A DNA stretch of 59,239 nt from Prevotellaceae bacterium (GTDB lineage: Bacteria; Bacteroidota; Bacteroidia; Bacteroidales; UBA932): NCBI GenBank assembly GCA_031267135.1, contig JAIRZQ010000165.1, positions 1 to 59,239 on the forward strand, read 5' to 3'. Every line of letters begins with the position of its first letter. Positions within the stretch are counted from its first letter, which is position 1. The notes under the pieces were generated by a model. The model was not told where the DNA came from, ran no database searches, and was given only the letters and a program-made list of their open reading frames with translations. This document shows, one piece after another, positions 35,680 to 48,645 of this stretch. The translations under genes were made by a program, and so were the position numbers.

Positions 35680-36062
35680 AATACAGTAATTTCGTTTTGT
35701 AAAAAATATCTGCAAAGATAGTGCAATTTTGTAAACGCGTAAAGTTTATTTTCATGCTTCAAGCAGTCGTTACTTAATAACTACTTTGTTAAAAAATAGA
35801 AAAACGCCTTGATATATAAAATACTGTTAACATGGTATTTATTTATATTATGATGCAAATGATATTTATAAATGTAAGAATTTTATTCAAAAAACCGATA
35901 AAAATAAACCAAAAATCCATTCATTTATAAAGAATGCATGTATTTATATAATAAATCCGGTTTCAATTTTAAACTTAAGCAGTTAAAATGAAATATCTTA
36001 TTAAAAATTTTGGTAATTATAAAATAAGATTATTAAATTTGCGGTATGTAAAATAAATAAAA

Positions 36063-36341
36063 ATGAACAAAAATGAAGTTCATATAGGTAATATCATACG
36101 GCAAAAGGTAAGCCAAAGTTCGCTTACTGTTACTGAATTTGCAAATCAAATAAATAAAACGCGCGAAAATGTATATGACATTTTTAAGCGTTCAAGTATT
36201 GACTCTGCATTACTGCTGCAAATATCAAAGGTATTGCATTATAACTTCTTTAAACATTTTAAAGAAAAGGAAGAATCTTCTGAATTATCCGAAATATCAG
36301 AATTCTCTGACTATTATGACTATTATGATATAGTTAAATAA
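36063..36341 (+). CDS. Small XRE-like helix-turn-helix protein with an acidic, Tyr-rich tail
   Basis: 92 aa. IGNIIRQKVSQSSLTVTEFANQINKTRENVYDIFKRSSIDSALLLQISKVL fits the XRE HTH pattern. The tail reads EESSELSEISEFSDYYDYYDIVK. It is the first gene of cassette 1. Confidence 0.6.
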   Translation: MNKNEVHIGNIIRQKVSQSSLTVTEFANQINKTRENVYDIFKRSSIDSALLLQISKVLHYNFFKHFKEKEESSELSEISEFSDYYDYYDIVK

Positions 36342-36357
36342 CAAGCACTTATCTTAA

Positions 36358-36439
36358 AGTGTGAAATAAAATTATACACAGTGTGAAATTTTATTTACGC
36401 AAAAAGCATTTTCTTTTAAAAAACATGTTTGTACTTTTG
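36358..36439 (+). promoter_or_regulatory. Direct-repeat operator candidate plus -7 box upstream of precursor 1
   Basis: AGTGTGAAAT occurs twice (36358-36367 and 36380-36389), 22 bp apart. TACTTTTG at 36432-36439 matches TAnnTTTG. The whole segment is conserved in cassette 2. Confidence 0.35.
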
Positions 36440-36504
36440 TGAAAAATTAAAAAAGGCAAAAATGTTACGCCTGAAAGATAACATAAATTAGAAATTTTAT
36501 AATT

Positions 36505-36693
36505 ATGAAAAAGGTAAAATTAACACTGGATGAATTAAGAAAAAACTCCAAAGAAATTTCCAAAGCATTAGATAAAAGATCTTTAGGTAAGATTAAAGGA
36601 GGAACGAGTAACTCGGGAAATTTAACAGGTGACTCATCACAGTTGATGGCTCAAGATAATGCCTATTACAGGAATATTCCGCCCATATCGTGA
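36505..36693 (+). CDS. Candidate RiPP precursor peptide 1 (Gly-Gly leader)
   Basis: The 62-aa peptide is MKKVKLTLDELRKNSKEISKALDKRSLGKIKGG followed by TSNSGNLTGDSSQLMAQDNAYYRNIPPIS. It has a Lys-rich leader ending in IKGG and a Ser/Thr-rich core with no Cys. It lies directly upstream of the rSAM and YcaO genes. Confidence 0.65.
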   Translation: MKKVKLTLDELRKNSKEISKALDKRSLGKIKGGTSNSGNLTGDSSQLMAQDNAYYRNIPPIS

Positions 36694-36721: not shown

Positions 36722-36781
36722 TACCTGAAATATTTTATCCAATAATGTAATTTAAGTATATTATATTTCAGGTACTTTTTT
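36722..36781 (+). terminator. Hairpin plus T-tract between precursor 1 and rSAM-1 (attenuator-like)
   Basis: Perfect 12-bp stem tacctgaaatat/atatttcaggta (36722-36733 and 36763-36774), followed by c+tttttt (36776-36781). Confidence 0.5.
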
Positions 36782-36793
36782 CTGTAATCAAAT

Positions 36794-37975
36794 ATGTTTA
36801 TAATGCTTATAAAATGCGTAATACTAAAGGTAACAAGTATATGCAATCTTTCATGCAAATATTGTTATGTTTATAATAAAACAGATAAATCATACCTGAA
36901 TGAACCTGATATTATAGATTTTGTTACAGTAAAACAATTATTACAAAAGATAGAACAATACTGCAAAAAAAATAAATTAAACTCATTTCTCATTATATTC
37001 CACGGAGGAGAACCGCTTATAGCAGGAAAATCATTTTACGAAGAATTTATTAAATTGGCAGAGAAAATAGTTATATCTGCAAAATTATATTATTCTATTC
37101 AAACAAATGGAACTCTATTAACAGAAACGTTCTGTAAATTATTTAAAAAGCACAATATACATGTATGTATAAGCATTGATGGTAACGAGACAGCATCAAA
37201 TAATAGAATTTTTAAAACCACTGGACATGCAGCATATAATAACATCATAGCTGGTTACAACATTGCAACAAAGTATGTAACACCATCCGTTTTATCTGTT
37301 ATTAATACCAGCACAGATATTGATGAGTATTATACTTTTTTTAAAGATATATCTGTATCATATATGGATTGCCTTCCTCCTGATTCTACTTATGAAAAGT
37401 TTGATATGAATGCTAATCAACTTGGTTTGTGGCTAATAAAATTATTTGATGTATGGTATTTTGACAAAAGCAAACATAAACCAAGAATACGAATGTTTGA
37501 AGATACCATCAATTTGTTTTTTGGAAATGAAAATTATGCAGGAGGAGAATTATTTGGCAGAAATTTTAACGGAGCTATTGATATAAGAACTAATGGCAAT
37601 ATTGATATTGTTGACACATTACGAATTTGCGAAAATAATTTCTTAGTAGGTAAATATAATATTATGAATAATGAATTAGATGATATAATTAAGGAAGACA
37701 TTTTTTATAAATTCTATAATGCCCATCAGGATGATGTGTTATGTGAAAAATGCAGAAATTGTATTGTAAAAGATGTTTGTGGAGGTGGATTGTTGACATA
37801 TAGATTTTCTGCTAAAAATAGTTTTAATAATCCTTCTGTATATTGTTTCGATATCTTTTTATTGCTTATGTATATACAAAATACGTTAATTGAATATACC
37901 TCACCTAAATTATTGCAACAAGTAAATTTAACAAAGATTTCCATGCAAGATTACATTAGAACTATTTTATATTAA
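36794..37975 (+). CDS. Radical SAM enzyme with C-terminal SPASM-type auxiliary cluster domain (peptide maturase candidate)
   Basis: 393 aa. The CxxxCxxC motif is at residues 17-24 (CNLSCKYC). There is a GGEP motif (FHGGEPLI). The C-terminus reads CEKCRNCIVKDVCGGG...NPSVYC. Confidence 0.8.
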   Translation: MFIMLIKCVILKVTSICNLSCKYCYVYNKTDKSYLNEPDIIDFVTVKQLLQKIEQYCKKNKLNSFLIIFHGGEPLIAGKSFYEEFIKLAEKIVISAKLYYSIQTNGTLLTETFCKLFKKHNIHVCISIDGNETASNNRIFKTTGHAAYNNIIAGYNIATKYVTPSVLSVINTSTDIDEYYTFFKDISVSYMDCLPPDSTYEKFDMNANQLGLWLIKLFDVWYFDKSKHKPRIRMFEDTINLFFGNENYAGGELFGRNFNGAIDIRTNGNIDIVDTLRICENNFLVGKYNIMNNELDDIIKEDIFYKFYNAHQDDVLCEKCRNCIVKDVCGGGLLTYRFSAKNSFNNPSVYCFDIFLLLMYIQNTLIEYTSPKLLQQVNLTKISMQDYIRTILY

Positions 37976-42250: not shown

Positions 42251-42300
42251 ATCTGAATAAAATTTTAGTTATTAAATTTGGAGCATGAAAATCAATTAAA

Positions 42301-42569
42301 ATGAAAAAATGAAGTTCATATAAGCAAACATTATACGGCAAAAGGTATGCCAAAGTTCGCTTACTGTTACTGAATTTGCAAATCAAATAAATAAAACGTG
42401 CGAAAATGTATATGACATTTTTAAGCGTTCAAGTATTGACTCTGCATTACTGTTGCAAATATCAAAGGTATTGCATTATAACTTCTTTAAACATTTTAAA
42501 GAAAAAGAAGAAACATCCGAATTCTCTGAATTTTCTGATTATTATGACTATTATGATATAGCTAAATAA
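42301..42569 (+). pseudogene. Disrupted paralog of the XRE-like HTH gene (cassette 2)
   Basis: It is nearly identical in nucleotide sequence to 36063-36341. It has a 2-nt deletion after the ATG (atgaaaaaatgaagtt versus atgaacaaaaatgaagtt) and a 1-nt insertion near 42325-42332. The HTH-encoding frame therefore opens after a TAA at 42321 with no start codon. Confidence 0.6.
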
Positions 42570-42585
42570 CAAGCACTTATCTTAA

Positions 42586-42667
42586 AGTGTGAAATAAAAT
42601 TATACACAGTGTGAAATTTTATTTACGCAAAAAGCATTTTCTTTAAAAAAACATGTTTATACTTTTG
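42586..42667 (+). promoter_or_regulatory. Second copy of the direct-repeat operator candidate plus -7 box (upstream of precursor 2)
   Basis: AGTGTGAAAT at 42586-42595 and 42608-42617. TACTTTTG at 42660-42667. Confidence 0.35.
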
Positions 42668-42730
42668 TGAAAAATAAAAAAGGAGAATTGTTACGCCCGA
42701 AAGATAACATAAATTAAAAATTTTATAATT

Positions 42731-42919
42731 ATGAAAAAGGTATCTAAAAAGGTACAAAGCACCAAGTTAAATGAAAGCAAGTACTTTTCTTTAAATGGCA
42801 ATATGCTAAAAATTAAAGGAGGTCATAATGGCGACGACCTAGTCAGCAACACTGACCGTACTTGTAATGGTGGTTGTGGTGCAACTTCAGCATTTGTTAA
42901 TGGTGGTATAGTAAATTAA
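42731..42919 (+). CDS. Candidate RiPP precursor peptide 2 (Gly-Gly leader)
   Basis: The 62-aa peptide is MKKVSKKVQSTKLNESKYFSLNGNMLKIKGG followed by HNGDDLVSNTDRTCNGGCGATSAFVNGGIVN. It has the same ATGAAAAAGGTA start and 5' leader as precursor 1, but a Gly-rich core containing two Cys. Confidence 0.65.
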   Translation: MKKVSKKVQSTKLNESKYFSLNGNMLKIKGGHNGDDLVSNTDRTCNGGCGATSAFVNGGIVN

Positions 42920-42942
42920 CTAAATGATGTAACCTCATTATT

Positions 42943-42995
42943 GTTTCCTCAATAAATTAAATTTATCTTTAATTAAGTTGATTTTTTGAGGAAAC
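42943..42995 (+). terminator. Hairpin after precursor 2 (attenuator-like, analogous to 36722-36781)
   Basis: Perfect 10-bp stem gtttcctcaa/ttgaggaaac (42943-42952 and 42986-42995), followed by tttcttt. Confidence 0.4.
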
Positions 42996-43071
42996 TTTCT
43001 TTAATGATTTTACATTAAGTAATAACTTTGCTTTATAATATTTTTAAACAAAATTAATTTATTGAATAAAA

Positions 43072-44377
43072 ATGAACTCGGCATATAAACAGTTTAATAT
43101 TGATAATTCAGCATACGTATTTTATATTGAAGATTTTGAAATTTTCAAAATACTTCAAGGTAAAAATATTGAAAATGTATTGCAGGAAATAAAAAATGAA
43201 AAAGAAAAGTATAATCCAAACATAGAGAAAACAGAAAAGAAAAGTATAAAAGATGACTTTATTTTTAACAGTAAAATCATCAATACTATTGGACTTGATA
43301 TAGCGCATGGTTGTACTTTGGATTGCACATATTGTTATGTTTCTGCATCTAAAAAGCCATGACAATTATTAAATACAGAAAAGTTTTTAGATATATTAAA
43401 GTTTCTAAAGAATGTAAAAGACAATCATATTACTTTCTATTTTACAGGATATGGAGAACCTGTTTTAAATTTTAATTTATTAAAACAAGTACCTTATCTA
43501 TGCAAAAAAAATGGGTTTAATAAATGTGATTTTGATCTAACGACAAATGGAACAATATTAACGAAAGAAATGATTGATTTTTTCAAATTGAATAAGTTTA
43601 CAATATATATAAGTTTGGATGGCAATGATAAAATTAACGATGAATCTCGCGTATACCACAACGGTAAGGGAAGTTTTAATGATGTATTTAATAATATGAA
43701 TTTGTTAAAAAAATAATATTAAATTTTCATGTAAAACAGTGGTGTTGCCGAATAATAAGAACCTTGCAGAAGCATTTTTATTTTTTGAAGAAAACAAAAT
43801 TCATTTTATTTTTTCTATTGCTACAAATTCATTTGATAATCATTTTTCACCAAATATCGAAGATCTTAAAACTTTTGAAGAACAATTGGATATAGTTATT
43901 GACAATTACAGAAAATTGATTGAAGGCAATAACAAAATATACGCAGCTAAAATAATAAATGATTTAAAAAGAATTCATTATGGTGCGGTTAATAAAAACG
44001 GATGTGTAGCCTCAAAAGAAGGTTATTTTATAGATATTGACGGAAACATATTTTCTTGCTCTTATCATTCTAGTTCTAAAGATTTATCTATTGGTAATAT
44101 CTATACAGGAATTGATTATGAAAAAATAATCAAAAACAGCTATTATGCTAAACCTGTAGATAATTATCCAGCATGTAAAGTTTGCTGGATGAAATATTTA
44201 TGTTCCGGATCTTATTTTGCCATAAAATGGTTAGAGAATAAAAATACGGATGATCCATCTGAATATCTGTGTAAAACTTACAATATTTATTGGCGTGCAA
44301 TAATTAAATTGTATATCCAGCTTTACCCTGTTATAATTAGTGGTAATAATATTAATTTTTGTGACAGGAAAAACTAA
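43072..44377 (+). pseudogene. Radical SAM/SPASM enzyme of cassette 2, interrupted by an in-frame TGA and a homopolymer frameshift
   Basis: The CxxxCxxC motif (CTLDCTYC) is at residues 81-88. There is an in-frame TGA at 43360-43362. The frame then continues as QLLNTEKF...ITFYFTGYGEPVLN...YISLDGN... to a TAA at 43714. A 7-A run at 43707-43713 separates it from the frame encoding KNNIKFSCKTVVLPNN... and the SPASM-like C-terminus (CKVCWMKYLCSGS). Confidence 0.7.
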
Positions 44378-46775
44378 TCATATTATATTCAAGCTGTTTA
44401 AGTTACTGCTTGTTACAATATTTGTATCAGGCGTAAATGAGTTGCACTCTCAAACGTTCATTATCAAAGGAAATATAAAAAATTCAATTGGAGAACCTGT
44501 TGAATTCGCTAATGTTGAACTGTTATTTGAATCTGTTTATCATCAATACGCATTAAGCGATTCTACAGGAAATTATTACTTAAAGGCAACAAAAACGGGT
44601 GATTGTGAATTATTAATAAATATTTTAGGATATTCTACTGTTCGTAAAAAAGTTACTTTGAAAAATGACACAACCATCAATTTTGTTTTACAGCCTAATC
44701 CGCTTATTATTAATGAAGCAACAGTAATTGGACAAAAAGGCTTAATTCAGGCTATGTCAGGCAGATATGTGATAAATATTGGCGGTAACATCGAAACCAA
44801 AGGTAAAGGAATCACTGATATTTTGAAACAGCTACCAACTGTAAATATATCCGAAGAACGTTTAAGCATCTTCGGAAAATCATCCGTTATTGTGTATATT
44901 AACGACCGGATTGTACGATTAGAAGGACAATCTTTATTAAACTATCTTAATTCCTTGCCACCTGATATTATCAACAGTGTAGAAATAATATCTTCGCCTC
45001 CTGCTCAATATGATGCAGAAGGTAATACGGGAATTATTAAAATAGTAACGAAAAAAAATATTCTTCCGGGATGGAAAGAGTATTTTAGAGCACTTTATGC
45101 TCAAAGCGCTTACTCATCTTACATGGTTTCTACATTTGTAAATTATACCGGAGGGAAAATGTTTTTTGAGGGAAGTATAATCAATTTTAATTCTTCTATC
45201 TTAAGTCGAGTTAATTATTATGGTTATTTTCCCAATGAAATAACAACTACATTTAATCCAAGAAAGTGGAACTCTATTGGTTATGAGGCACAAACAAGCC
45301 TGGGATATAATTTCAATAAAAACTCAAATATTATTGTTAATTTGCAAATACCATTATATGGTAAAGTAACTATGACGGATATTGAAAATACAACCAGTTT
45401 TATTAACTCTGCTAATAATCAAACCGATTCAAGCATAAATTCTAACGGTACAATGATAACGAATAATTATACATTTAATTCAGAAGTGTTTTTTAAACAT
45501 TTGTTTTCAAACCGGGAATCATACTTTACGGCAAGTATGGCTTATCTCAATAATTACACGAAAAATAGAAGAGGCTTTTCTTCTTTAATGCAAATTAACA
45601 ATATAAATTCGACAACTGATAATTTTTATACAGAAGGAGGGTTGAATTATAATATTTTAACTCCCAAGTTAGATTTTAATTTTCCATTATTCAGTTGTAC
45701 AGTTAATACGGGTCTTAAACTGTCATTTATTGAAACTTCCTCTGATAATACATTTTTTAACATCATTAATTACAATCACATATTGGATCCTGCTCTGTCA
45801 AATAAATACAAATATACAGAGAATGTACAATCAGTGTATTACAGCATGGAAAAAACTGTTTCAAAATGGTCGTTTAAAGCGGGAATACGTGCCGAAACAA
45901 CAAAAACTGTCGGCAATTCACTGATTACAGATGAACAGTACAAAGATAATTATGCAGATTTTTTTTCATCAATTTATATATCTCATAAATTGAATAATAA
46001 AAGCAATATTTCAATTAGTTATGCTGAGCGAATTGAAAGACCTCCGTACCAATACTTAAACCCATTTAGATGGTACATCAGCAAATATAATTATGGTATG
46101 GGAAATCCTTTTCTAAAACCTTCTTATATAAAAAATCTCGAATTAGCTTATGTACTTAATAATACGTTCAGTATTAAAACATATTATACTCGTCAAAATA
46201 ACAAAATTGGACAATATGTTGTGCTTGATTCACTCAATATTTTGGAATCAATACAGCAAACGGACAATTTTTTTAATGTGAATATTTATGGAATCAATGT
46301 CTATAAATTATTGAAACTGTTTGACTGGCAGGAAACTGTTTTACAGGCTGATTTTTCTTATTCTGAATATAAATCAAATGAAAAAGAGTTTGCTAATATG
46401 TCCGGCATAAGTAGTACAGTCATTATGAATAATACAATTTTTATCAATAAAAAGTTTCAACTGATTTTTAATTTGGAAGAAAGGCTTCCCGGTTTATATA
46501 ATTACAGATCAATGAATAATTTTTTCAAAATAGATAGTGGACTTAATTACGTACACAGTAAAAAAGGAATTGAAGTGAGGCTTTTGATCAGCGATATTTT
46601 TAAAACAGCAAATCCTGAATATTCTTATATAAGTAGCGGTATTAAACAAATTTACCGAAATTATAATGATACCCGAATGGTTAGATTAGTATTGTCGTGG
46701 AGACTTGGCAACTGGTATAACAGAACACCACAAATATCTTCCCCTTCTAACTTAGATGAAAAACAAAGATTATAA
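44361..46775 (+). CDS. Second TonB-dependent-receptor-like outer-membrane beta-barrel protein
   Basis: Paralog of 39893-42250. IKGNIKNSIGEPVEFANVEL is the CarbopepD_reg-like region, and ILKQLPTVNISE...YINDR...LPPDIINSVEIISSPPAQY is plug-like. There is no ATG start. GTG at 44361 (or 44340) precedes the signal-like KLFKLLLVTIFVSG. Confidence 0.65.
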   Translation: MTGKTNHIIFKLFKLLLVTIFVSGVNELHSQTFIIKGNIKNSIGEPVEFANVELLFESVYHQYALSDSTGNYYLKATKTGDCELLINILGYSTVRKKVTLKNDTTINFVLQPNPLIINEATVIGQKGLIQAMSGRYVINIGGNIETKGKGITDILKQLPTVNISEERLSIFGKSSVIVYINDRIVRLEGQSLLNYLNSLPPDIINSVEIISSPPAQYDAEGNTGIIKIVTKKNILPGWKEYFRALYAQSAYSSYMVSTFVNYTGGKMFFEGSIINFNSSILSRVNYYGYFPNEITTTFNPRKWNSIGYEAQTSLGYNFNKNSNIIVNLQIPLYGKVTMTDIENTTSFINSANNQTDSSINSNGTMITNNYTFNSEVFFKHLFSNRESYFTASMAYLNNYTKNRRGFSSLMQINNINSTTDNFYTEGGLNYNILTPKLDFNFPLFSCTVNTGLKLSFIETSSDNTFFNIINYNHILDPALSNKYKYTENVQSVYYSMEKTVSKWSFKAGIRAETTKTVGNSLITDEQYKDNYADFFSSIYISHKLNNKSNISISYAERIERPPYQYLNPFRWYISKYNYGMGNPFLKPSYIKNLELAYVLNNTFSIKTYYTRQNNKIGQYVVLDSLNILESIQQTDNFFNVNIYGINVYKLLKLFDWQETVLQADFSYSEYKSNEKEFANMSGISSTVIMNNTIFINKKFQLIFNLEERLPGLYNYRSMNNFFKIDSGLNYVHSKKGIEVRLLISDIFKTANPEYSYISSGIKQIYRNYNDTRMVRLVLSWRLGNWYNRTPQISSPSNLDEKQRL

Positions 46776-48645
46776 AAATAAATTTAAATATAATGTTATG
46801 CATAAAATGTTAAAACCGTATAAAGAAGAAAAGCCATTAATTACTATTAACAGAATTCGTTCTATATTGAATGATGTTGGGATATTTGTTTCCGAAAAGT
46901 TTATACAAGATGGTGATTATTTTACCTGTAGAATTGTAATAGCTAATGATAACTTAATGGAATTTAATATAGGCACTAATGGCAAGGGAACGAGCATAGA
47001 ATATGCTTATGCCAGTGCCTATGCTGAGTTTATGGAAAGACTTCAAAATAATGTATTAATAAAAGCATCTTTCTTTTTTTCAAAATATTATAATAGAGAT
47101 TGTGTTTTTAAGAAACAATTAAAATTAGAAAACAAGGAATTGGATTTCTTATTTTGCCCTGATGAAAAAATGATAGAAATGACTAAAATAATTGATGAAA
47201 ATTACGAAATATTAAGAAAGTCATTCTCAATCAACGATAAAGATGAATTAACGGATTTTATTATTAATACATTTAAATATGCTAAAGCAATTTGTATTCC
47301 TTTTTATAATCAAAAAAATAATACAACAGATTATTTGCCAATAGATCTTCTTTTTTACGGTACAGGTTCAAATGGAATGTGTGCAGGAAATACTCCCGAA
47401 GAAGCTTTAATTCAAGGTGTATCTGAAATTTTGGAAAGATATGCCGCTATGGAAATATATATCAATGAAATTACTCCACCAACAATACCTCATGATTATT
47501 TTAAAGAATATCCAATATATAATTCACTAAAAAAACTTGAGGAAAAAGGATTAGAATTGATTATTAAAGATTTTTCATTAAGTAAAGGGCTACCTGTTAT
47601 AGGTGTTATTGTAATTGATAAAAATTCGAGGAAATATAATGTTAAAATCGGCTCGGATCCATGGCCTATAATTGCATTAGAAAGATGTTTAACGGAATTG
47701 CATCAGAGTTTTTTTGGAATTAGATTAATAGACAAATGTGATTATGGTGATTTTATAGAAAAAGAAAAATATAATGGATTAAATAGTGTAGAGGCTGAAC
47801 ATATTAATTTAACAAAAATTATTAACAATGCAACAGGACAATGGCCGGATTCTATATTTAGTGATGATTTTACTTACGAATTTACGGGTCTAAACTTTAA
47901 CTTAGGTAAAAGTAATAAATCTGATTTAAAATACTTATTACAATTAATAGATGAATTAGGGTCACAAATTTACATTAGAGATGTTTCATATTTAGGATTT
48001 AATTCGTATTACATTGTAGCTCCCGGCTTAAGTCAAGATAAAAGGAATAAATCTGCTTATGCCCTTTTTAATAAACTGCATGTTTTAATTAGGAATATTA
48101 ATAATACTTCAACATTAACAAAAGATGAATTAACCTCTCTCGTGTCGTTATTAGAAGAAAACTATATTGCAATTAAAGAAAACTATATAGAGTTTGAAAA
48201 AATATTTTTTTATAATACAGATAAAGAAGCTACCGATTTAACCATTGATTTATTTTTAAGTATGGCAAGCTATAAATTAGGGAAAATTGACAAAGCGTAT
48301 TCATATTTAAAAAATTATTTAAAAAATAAAGATGTGCAAGATTATTTATATTTTTATGCATGTAAAGATTATTTAGCGTTATTGCAAAATGAAAAAAGCA
48401 CATATGAAGTCCAATCATATATGACTAAAATATACGATATTGATTTGGCAAAAGAAGTTATTGAAGACATGCAAGATGCTAATAATATTTTTAAATCATA
48501 TAATTTACAGTCGTATTTTGAATGCAATAATTGTGATATCAAAGAATTTAAGTATTTTAAAGTCGCATCCATATTGAAAAACATTGAAAATAAACATAAA
48601 GCCCAAACTATTGACCAAATGAACTTATCAAAAATATTTTATTAA
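46756..48645 (+). CDS. Second YcaO-domain protein with long C-terminal extension
   Basis: YcaO signatures are GTNGKGTSIEYAYASAYAEFMERLQN and GTGSNGMCAGNTPEEALIQGVSEILERYA. The terminal motif is reduced to CNNC. The start more likely lies at ATG 46798 or 46807, after the stop of the preceding gene. Confidence 0.8.
   Translation: MKNKDYKNKFKYNVMHKMLKPYKEEKPLITINRIRSILNDVGIFVSEKFIQDGDYFTCRIVIANDNLMEFNIGTNGKGTSIEYAYASAYAEFMERLQNNVLIKASFFFSKYYNRDCVFKKQLKLENKELDFLFCPDEKMIEMTKIIDENYEILRKSFSINDKDELTDFIINTFKYAKAICIPFYNQKNNTTDYLPIDLLFYGTGSNGMCAGNTPEEALIQGVSEILERYAAMEIYINEITPPTIPHDYFKEYPIYNSLKKLEEKGLELIIKDFSLSKGLPVIGVIVIDKNSRKYNVKIGSDPWPIIALERCLTELHQSFFGIRLIDKCDYGDFIEKEKYNGLNSVEAEHINLTKIINNATGQWPDSIFSDDFTYEFTGLNFNLGKSNKSDLKYLLQLIDELGSQIYIRDVSYLGFNSYYIVAPGLSQDKRNKSAYALFNKLHVLIRNINNTSTLTKDELTSLVSLLEENYIAIKENYIEFEKIFFYNTDKEATDLTIDLFLSMASYKLGKIDKAYSYLKNYLKNKDVQDYLYFYACKDYLALLQNEKSTYEVQSYMTKIYDIDLAKEVIEDMQDANNIFKSYNLQSYFECNNCDIKEFKYFKVASILKNIENKHKAQTIDQMNLSKIFY

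Follow-up and report, generated by a model that had tools for sequence, protein, structure and literature searches.

A conserved double-glycine-leader peptide precursor from a Prevotellaceae genome, probably orphaned by recent loss of its radical SAM enzyme

The 59,239-nt contig JAIRZQ010000165.1 (assembly GCA_031267135.1) of a Prevotellaceae bacterium, analysed at its full length and referred to here as the window, holds two gene cassettes of the kind that makes peptides ribosomally synthesized and then modified after translation (RiPPs). Each contains a small open reading frame (ORF) for a peptide and genes for a radical S-adenosylmethionine (rSAM) enzyme, a YcaO enzyme and an outer-membrane protein (OMP). 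The small ORF of the second cassette, precursor 2, stands directly before a damaged rSAM gene. Is it a real precursor gene, is it a diversified copy of precursor 1 in the first cassette, and can its product still be matured? Our data identify it as a genuine precursor of a cassette family of the itf kind that was orphaned recently by the death of its rSAM gene, a reading to which we assign a probability of about three in four. In that case its peptide would be produced without modification or with that of YcaO alone, the gene probably heading for decay.

The precursor 2 gene (42731-42919, plus strand, as are all features of cassette 2 described below) is an open frame of 62 codons with the stop TAA. 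Its 62-residue product, MKKVSKKVQSTKLNESKYFSLNGNMLKIKGGHNGDDLVSNTDRTCNGGCGATSAFVNGGIVN, is identical to the peptide given in the original prediction and divides into a leader terminating in GG (residues 1-31, 42731-42823; MKKVSKKVQSTKLNESKYFSLNGNMLKIKGG) and a core (residues 32-62, 42824-42916; HNGDDLVSNTDRTCNGGCGATSAFVNGGIVN). An ORF this short, matched by no Pfam model and by no NCBIfam model even at E<=10, might be a chance open frame in AT-rich non-coding DNA. However, 18 other distinct homologs keep the leader and the core motif, always directly upstream of the same rSAM family, and wherever a relative retains the enzymes the ORF is intact as well; its loss or disruption in such relatives had been named as a sign against it. 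Relative to the closest homolog, at locus L004 (83-85% identity), precursor 2 differs by roughly 13 synonymous and 9 non-synonymous changes and by two indels that are both in frame, and the ratio of non-synonymous to synonymous rates (dN/dS) is 0.14. Because of this homolog set, the fixed downstream enzyme and the dN/dS value, the ORF is a gene and a chance origin, which we reject, is almost certainly wrong. The 62-codon ORF is a real double-glycine-leader RiPP precursor gene of a conserved Bacteroidales family, as the original prediction had proposed in describing a RiPP-type precursor with such a leader.

A protein search returned five relatives of precursor 2, and the set was enlarged by scans of genomes and metagenomes and by the neighbourhoods of rSAM homologs to 19 distinct sequences at 21 loci (precursor 2 and 18 others). 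They come from metagenomes, metagenome-assembled genomes (MAGs) and two named species, Culturomica massiliensis from the human gut and Marinifilum sp. Across the 19 sequences the leader is strongly conserved, with the consensus MKKVSKKVQSTK(LN)E.KY.SLNG..LKKIKGG; the GG (residues 30-31 in precursor 2) is invariant in all of them, and the leader end is K[IVL][KGE]GG in almost all relatives. A linker of 6-18 residues, free in length and sequence, follows the GG. The core then shows [ST]-D-[RNH]-x-C-x(2-3)-C with invariant D, C and C, and usually a tail [GS]-[AS]-T-x-A-[FWY], the Phe of which is the final residue in the Marinifilum and Culturomica peptides. Precursor 2 agrees with all invariant positions of the family. 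In the family alignment and motif table its conserved core motif, TDRTCNGGCGATSAF, spans 42851-42895 and includes the invariant D42, C45 and C49 and the common aromatic position F55. The C-x3-C pair recognized in the original prediction is thus present as C45 and C49, whereas the description of core 2 as hypervariable did not hold: with D42, C45 and C49 invariant and an ATxAF tail common across the 19 sequences, only the linker varies freely.

The precursor 2 leader is one Lys short, with LK-IKGG in place of LKKIKGG, and is unique in the family in this respect. A 3-nt (AAA) deletion in an A-run at 42806-42811 shortens the spacer between SLNG and GG from seven residues, the length in 16 of the 19 sequences, to six; among the other exceptions, P0007 is ambiguous and the Culturomica spacer is longer. 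The deletion may be an early sign of relaxed constraint.

The original prediction had suggested comparing the leaders with a hidden Markov model of the TIGR04149 type. Precursor 2 shares with the TIGR04149/TIGR04148 system short peptides starting in MKK, a GG leader end and a position beside an rSAM gene in Bacteroidota. It differs in that it is unmatched by TIGR04149 (GG_sam_targ_CFB) at E<=10 and so lies outside this family, that only three of eight relatives match, weakly (best E 0.0017, under the 25-bit cut-off), and that the 25 best models for the intact ortholog of rSAM-2 do not include TIGR04148. Against TIGR04149, with its cut-off of 25 bits, precursor 1 reaches 13.4 bits. As far as our literature search showed, the precursor 2 family has not been defined or characterized before.

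The two precursors of the window had been read as members of a single diversifying family whose leader is shared and whose cores are hypervariable. Precursor 1 (36505-36693) encodes MKKVKLTLDELRKNSKEISKALDKRSLGKIKGGTSNSGNLTGDSSQLMAQDNAYYRNIPPIS and has a single relative, P0010, with the leader end GKIKGG. As the original prediction stated, the 5' untranslated region (UTR) and the first four codons are common to both genes. They belong to a direct repeat of about 480 bp (36030-36516 and 42269-42742, about 92-94% identical) that ends at nucleotide 12 of both ORFs (ATGAAAAAGGTA), beyond which similarity is at chance level. The precursors have in common only MKKV, at the edge of the duplicated module, and KIKGG, with which leader 2 ends (LKIKGG) as leader 1 does (GKIKGG). 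The BLASTP alignment between them (E=1.7) consists of KIKGG alone, leader residues 5-26 are unrelated, and a search of the genome with precursor 2 (E<=10) returned only itself; homology of the two leaders is therefore rejected. KIKGG lies outside the recently duplicated DNA and is thus an independently conserved motif, so the duplicated 5' segment does not by itself account for the likeness of the leaders. The cores are unrelated, as had been noted: core 1 is Tyr-rich and devoid of Cys, whereas core 2 has two Cys and an invariant Asp. The rSAM enzymes beside the precursors also belong to different classes, which fits the unrelated leaders and cores. Judged from these alignments, precursor 2 is no diversified copy of precursor 1, each belongs to a family of its own, and the proposal of a single diversifying family falls.

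Cassette 1 comprises a helix-turn-helix (HTH) gene (36063-36341), precursor 1, rSAM-1 (36794-37975), YcaO-1 and OMP-1. Cassette 2 comprises a broken HTH copy, precursor 2, rSAM-2 (43072-44377), OMP-2 (44340-46775) and YcaO-2 (46756-48645). OMP-2 is a TonB-dependent-receptor-like barrel (CarboxypepD_reg and OMP_b-brl_3), intact and of full length in comparison with its orthologs. YcaO-2 is intact and 74-79% identical to the YcaO proteins of loci L012 and L013; its nearest solved structure is E. coli YcaO (4q84), and it scores 189 bits against NF040716, for which the cut-off is 700. This gene order is conserved. In all 16 tabulated loci the precursor is directly followed by an rSAM-2 ortholog whose identity to the intact P0009 is 57-100%, and a PapB/CteB/QhpD-like rSAM/SPASM gene comes next in every family-2 locus with downstream sequence. 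An OMP-2 ortholog (OMP_b-brl_3 barrel) then follows wherever the locus sequence extends far enough, and a YcaO-2 ortholog is found in the longer loci L012, L013, L030 and L031. L013 and L030 also carry a C39 peptidase ABC transporter (PCAT), accompanied in L030 by an AprE-like membrane-fusion protein. The window's genome has three ORFs of C39 PCAT size, all on other contigs and none in the cassette. With GG at the leader end and a C39 peptidase ABC transporter in the genome, cleavage after the leader is predicted. Precursor 2 thus adjoins genes for an rSAM/SPASM enzyme, a YcaO and a TonB-receptor-like barrel, as in an itf-like cassette, with the rSAM gene a pseudogene here. P0048 (239 aa) was considered as a second truncated rSAM and rejected, being merely cut by a contig end.

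The best models for rSAM-1 are the cyclophane formers YhhB, FxsB and XyeB. The class of rSAM-2, read from the 436-residue P0009, is PapB/CteB/QhpD-like and of the thioether type. P0009 scores 185.4 bits over the whole profile of the PapB ranthipeptide-maturase model, under the cut-off of 340; it thus misses the ranthipeptide equivalog cut-offs of both NF047865 (185.4 against 340 bits) and TIGR03974 (112.6 against 425). Lower-ranked models are nif11, QhpD, CcpM and SCIFF maturases, and among solved structures CteB (5wgg) is nearest. In all rSAM-2 orthologs the CX3CX2C motif comes after an N-terminal extension of about 70 residues, which rSAM-1 lacks; a Pfam search of this extension for a RiPP recognition element (RRE) returned nothing meaningful.

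This kind of locus, an itf-like rSAM and YcaO RiPP cassette of Bacteroidales, is already known. The itf cluster of Bacteroides thetaiotaomicron was reportedly described by Clark & Seyedsayamdost (JACS 2022). Like cassette 2, it combines a GG-leader precursor, an rSAM/SPASM enzyme, a standalone YcaO, a TonB-dependent outer-membrane barrel and a C39 ABC transporter; the two belong to the same taxonomic order, Bacteroidales, and both peptides have an aromatic residue at or near the C-terminus after Thr (ItfA ...WTITF, precursor 2 ...ATSAF). According to PMC11002830 and PMC10352776, ItfA is a GG precursor ending in ITF, the YcaO ItfB forms a backbone amidine, the rSAM enzyme ItfD joins Trp to Ile by a C-C link, and ItfE and ItfF are a PCAT and a TonB-dependent transporter. 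The comparison covers the list of parts and the ItfA sequence, with ItfB and ItfD compared by description only. ItfA differs from precursor 2 in its unrelated leader and core; core 2 has neither Trp nor ITF and carries ATSAF internally, so that it is not a core of the ItfA type. rSAM-2, in contrast to ItfD, resembles thioether formers, and its substrate offers two invariant Cys and no Trp/Ile motif. The cassette in the window also has no PCAT inside. ItfD is set apart from CteB-like enzymes at a higher alignment score, according to one of these papers.

Cassette 2 matches closely a second system, BGC8 of Porphyromonas gulae COT-052 OH1451, to which we liken it by the description of BGC8 and not by sequence identity. 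As given in PMC10352776, BGC8 is a bioinformatic prediction, for which a thioether and an amidine are proposed. Its GG-leader precursor is 61 residues long, ends in Phe and has Thr and two Cys in the core; its rSAM/SPASM enzyme is CteB/QhpD-like, shows CTLNCKYC at residues 80-87 and carries an RRE-like extension at the N-terminus; and YcaO, OMP and PCAT genes are present. The CTLNCKYC motif has its counterparts in CTLDCTYC of P0009 (residues 82-89) and in CTLNCTYC of L012. The leaders differ in length, with 27 residues in BGC8 (PMC10352776) and 31 in precursor 2, and no P. gulae protein appears among the named rSAM-2 homolog matches or homolog clusters. Among characterized enzymes, PapB gives the best NCBIfam model for the intact ortholog, over the whole profile, and CteB the best structure. 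The precursor 2 family also resembles PapB and QhpD substrates in having Cys close to an invariant Asp, although the motif is D-x2-C rather than C-x3-D, the model score lies far under the equivalog cut-offs (185 versus 340 bits), and cassette 2 adds a YcaO and an outer-membrane barrel to what is here a predicted thioether.

These comparisons suggest a maturation pathway for intact members of the family. The N-terminal extension of rSAM-2 would bind the family leader (KY.SLNG..LKK), and the enzyme would then join Cys45/Cys49 to a side-chain carbon through at least one thioether bridge. The most likely acceptor is Asp42, as in PapB/QhpD chemistry, with Thr41 or Thr44 as alternatives, as in CteB; in favour of Asp42 are its invariance and the Cys-Asp links that PapB and QhpD make. 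YcaO-2 would activate a backbone amide, giving an amidine near A-T-x-A-F by analogy with ItfB or alternatively a thiazoline at Cys. A C39 transporter may cleave after G31 and export the peptide, and the OMP-2 barrel may serve outer-membrane passage or re-uptake. In the window's genome the first chemical step, that of rSAM-2, would be absent.

The original prediction had called the cognate rSAM apparently broken, and the lesions bear this out. Codon TGA at 43360-43362 replaces CGA (Arg) of L004, with Arg or Leu in the other orthologs. The frame is shifted at 43707-43713 by an A7 tract, in whose place L004 has A9 and others AAAAGAAAA. Intact orthologs have a complete SPASM CX2CX5CX3C motif, whereas in the truncated window copy TAT (Tyr) at 44213-44215 stands for its last Cys (CSGSYF, against CSGSCF in the three orthologs at L002, L003 and L012). 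Precursor 1 ends in TGA, so that TGA is an ordinary stop in this genome; recoding of the rSAM-2 codon as Trp, Gly or Sec was rejected on this ground and on the Arg, Leu and CGA of the orthologs. Given the nonsense codon, the frameshift and the lost SPASM ligand, precursor 2 cannot receive its cognate cross-link.

Could the lesions be errors, or one phase state of the poly-A tract, with the gene working in part of the population? The frameshift does lie in a homopolymer that varies between loci (A9 in L004, A8 in L018, A7 in the window), and contigs drop rare variants. However, the TGA codon and the SPASM Cys-to-Tyr change are independent of the tract and would inactivate the enzyme in any tract state. 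In addition, a Logan contig built by a different assembler from the same run (X1, a termite gut metagenome, depth 15) is identical over 42615-44500, with 0 differences. The lesions therefore stand in the consensus of the reads, an assembly artefact is largely rejected, and we consider a partly working gene very unlikely.

The poly-A tract is A9 and in frame in L004 (about 1390-1400), A8 with a frameshift in the unrelated metagenome contig L018 (about 1463-1471) and A7 with a frameshift in the window (43707-43713), while most other orthologs interrupt the A-run with a G (AAAAGAAAA). It is a recurrent slippage hot spot, or possibly a switch.

The loss is recent. A trace of relaxed selection was sought in rSAM-2 and none was seen: dN/dS against L002 is 0.19, compared with 0.17-0.23 for intact pairs, and lineage-specific replacements number 13 versus 11. 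For OMP-2 these replacements number 28 versus 38; dN/dS is 0.22 for OMP-2 and 0.14 for YcaO-2. Since dN/dS of rSAM-2 is still 0.19 without an excess of lineage-specific changes, we place its loss in the recent past.

Several points weigh against the view of precursor 2 as a recent orphan in a decaying cassette. The Logan contig derives from the same reads as the MAG, and its agreement excludes assembler error rather than a minority intact strain. No RNA-seq runs holding the region are listed, and we infer its transcription. The thioether acceptor and the YcaO product are read from distant enzyme similarity, with all curated equivalog cut-offs missed (185<340; 189<700). The shortened SLNG-GG spacer could already impair recognition, or be neutral. 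Finally, rSAM-2 and the second HTH copy (1.6 kb) contain four lesions and OMP-2 and YcaO-2 (4.3 kb) none, which hints that part of the cassette is useful and that 'decaying relic' may be too strong a term.

This last point leads to the proposal that the cassette has moved to an rSAM-independent mode, in which YcaO-2 alone (making an amidine or azoline) and OMP-2 are used, or that the strain retains OMP-2 and YcaO-2 for uptake or handling of a peptide from neighbouring strains. At a uniform rate over the 6.1 kb of coding sequence, 0.19-kb precursor included, the chance of this lesion distribution would be (1.6/6.1)^4, about 0.005, in a post hoc calculation; the low dN/dS values of OMP-2 and YcaO-2 point the same way, and ItfB acts as a separate step in the itf pathway (PMC11002830). 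On the other hand, rSAM-2 was lost so recently, with no lineage-specific excess, that the lesion-free remainder may be due to chance. The sister genome G007, described below, has the reverse pattern, with YcaO-2 reduced to about 90 residues and rSAM-2 intact, which speaks for a general erosion and against a new, stable mode. We regard an rSAM-independent mode as unlikely.

Full maturation of precursor 2 in trans, by rSAM-1 (cyclophane type, possibly at F55-V56-N57) or by a PapB-like rSAM enzyme on contig C23, is a further possibility. rSAM-1 is intact and under a near-identical promoter, an aromatic-x-Asn triplet (FVN, WTN) follows the Cys motif in several family-2 cores, the C23 enzyme (477 aa) scores 226 bits, and YcaO-2 and OMP-2 remain intact. 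However, the recognition parts of the two leaders are unrelated, and rSAM-1 is without the N-terminal extension found in all rSAM-2 orthologs. The C23 enzyme is 28% identical to rSAM-2 and has a GG precursor of its own, P0011, with a different leader. Most family-2 loci have no second rSAM gene nearby (L031 begins inside one), and the aromatic-x-Asn triplet is not conserved across the family. Taken together, rescue in trans seems decidedly improbable to us, and orphaning of precursor 2 remains the preferred reading.

P0011 is a third GG-leader precursor in the window's genome, with leader MKNKIEKKKFNFLTLENASEIQGG and core KHVVKICAATEIYKCARIEGTYCGTGAAIEIIGPVDPFG, the peptide containing three Cys. 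It lies on C23 (L010, 984-2655), directly upstream of the 477-residue PapB-like rSAM/SPASM gene, whose score against the PapB model is 226 bits.

Precursor 2 is probably still transcribed. Within the second copy of the regulatory module (42269-42742) lie an HTH remnant, the promoter region and the 5' UTR, together with the initial 12 nt of the precursor. Compared with copy 1, HTH copy 2 (42300-42569) has lost 2 nt and gained 1 nt at its 5' end, which disrupts it; stops occur within the first 10 codons, and the longest canonical ORF in the HTH frame has 38 residues. A 51-residue ORF at 42406-42561 is spurious, its frame differing from that of the remnant. Two AGTGTGAAAT direct repeats (42586-42595 and 42608-42617, 22 nt from start to start) form a candidate operator and are kept in both window copies (42586-42617 and 36358-36389) and in L002, L004 and L028. 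The Bacteroidota -7 promoter consensus is TAnnTTTG; the putative promoter box TACTTTTG (42660-42667) fits it and is kept in L002 and L004 in the form TACCTTTG. Promoter and operator of cassette 2 are about 94% identical to those of cassette 1 and HTH-1 is intact, so that precursor 2 should still be expressed together with precursor 1. The module also stands upstream of the family-2 precursors in L002 and L004, and a version with the HTH 3' end only precedes the family-1 precursor of G007 (L028). Its presence before both precursor families makes it an old companion of the two cassette types, near-identical within this genome.

The 22-nt AGTGTGAAAT spacing occurs upstream of both precursors; direct repeats of 9-10 bp at a periodicity of 21-22 nt are typical of LytTR regulators. 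A LytTR-domain gene lies directly upstream of the Marinifilum precursor (L031, 8106-8441) and LytTR fragments occur in L002, while the window has the small HTH protein. The small HTH proteins have an acidic, Tyr-rich C-terminal tail (SEFSDYYDYYDI; window 36282-36341 and 42510-42569). This tail is conserved in L002, and its coding DNA remains upstream of precursor 1 in G007, where the rest of the gene is lost.

Between precursor 2 and rSAM-2 lies a long RNA hairpin (42925-43017; z -7.55, minimum free energy -29.3 kcal/mol), the inner stem of which, GTTTCCTCA(A)/(T)TGAGGAAAC, has 9-10 bp (42943-42952 and 42986-42995). Across six loci the loop varies but the stem does not change, and covariation is uncountable because of that invariance. 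The hairpin could be an attenuator, a transcript-stabilizing element or a protein-binding palindrome. In cassette 1, an unrelated hairpin with a T-run was seen by eye after precursor 1 (TACCTGAAATAT...ATATTTCAGGTA, about 36729-36783).

Among ten congeneric genomes only one, G007 (a Prevotellaceae MAG from termite gut, JAISOH01), has the cassette, and the two-cassette island is thus patchy within the genus. L028 10001-11450 and L002 14058-17199 lie on one G007 contig. There rSAM-2 is intact and YcaO-2 is reduced to a fragment of about 90 residues, after which come LytTR fragments, a distant third YcaO (31% identical) and genes for an M48 peptidase and for ABC transporters. In its cassette 1, rSAM-1 is split over three frames and a 1-nt deletion near the end of precursor 1 shifts the frame. 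From the state of these genes, each of the two species keeps one apparently working rSAM, and their cassettes decay reciprocally. A tyrosine-integrase-like gene directly follows OMP-1 at the end of the G007 island (L028 16305-17525); no integrase gene was seen beside the island in the window.

The pattern admits one bolder reading, which we consider improbable: a modular cassette erodes piecewise, sister species keep different halves, precursor 2 is still used and the A9 tract is a hypermutable on/off switch of production. The window keeps YcaO-2 and the barrel without rSAM-2, and G007 keeps rSAM-2 and the barrel without YcaO-2. If piecewise erosion were true, the peptide would be a YcaO-only product, or the barrel would import the fully modified peptide of neighbours, and the peptide would act not as a private bacteriocin but as something shared, a signal or a metal-binding public good.

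The reciprocal decay of two cassettes in sister species is a useful natural experiment on cassette dispensability. For the family, a lone small ORF has become a defined, testable group of precursors with a leader and a core consensus, and intact gene sets are obtainable from Culturomica massiliensis and Marinifilum sp. The invariant Asp and two Cys turn this into a concrete prediction of a thioether-plus-YcaO product, a combination so far known only as the prediction for BGC8.

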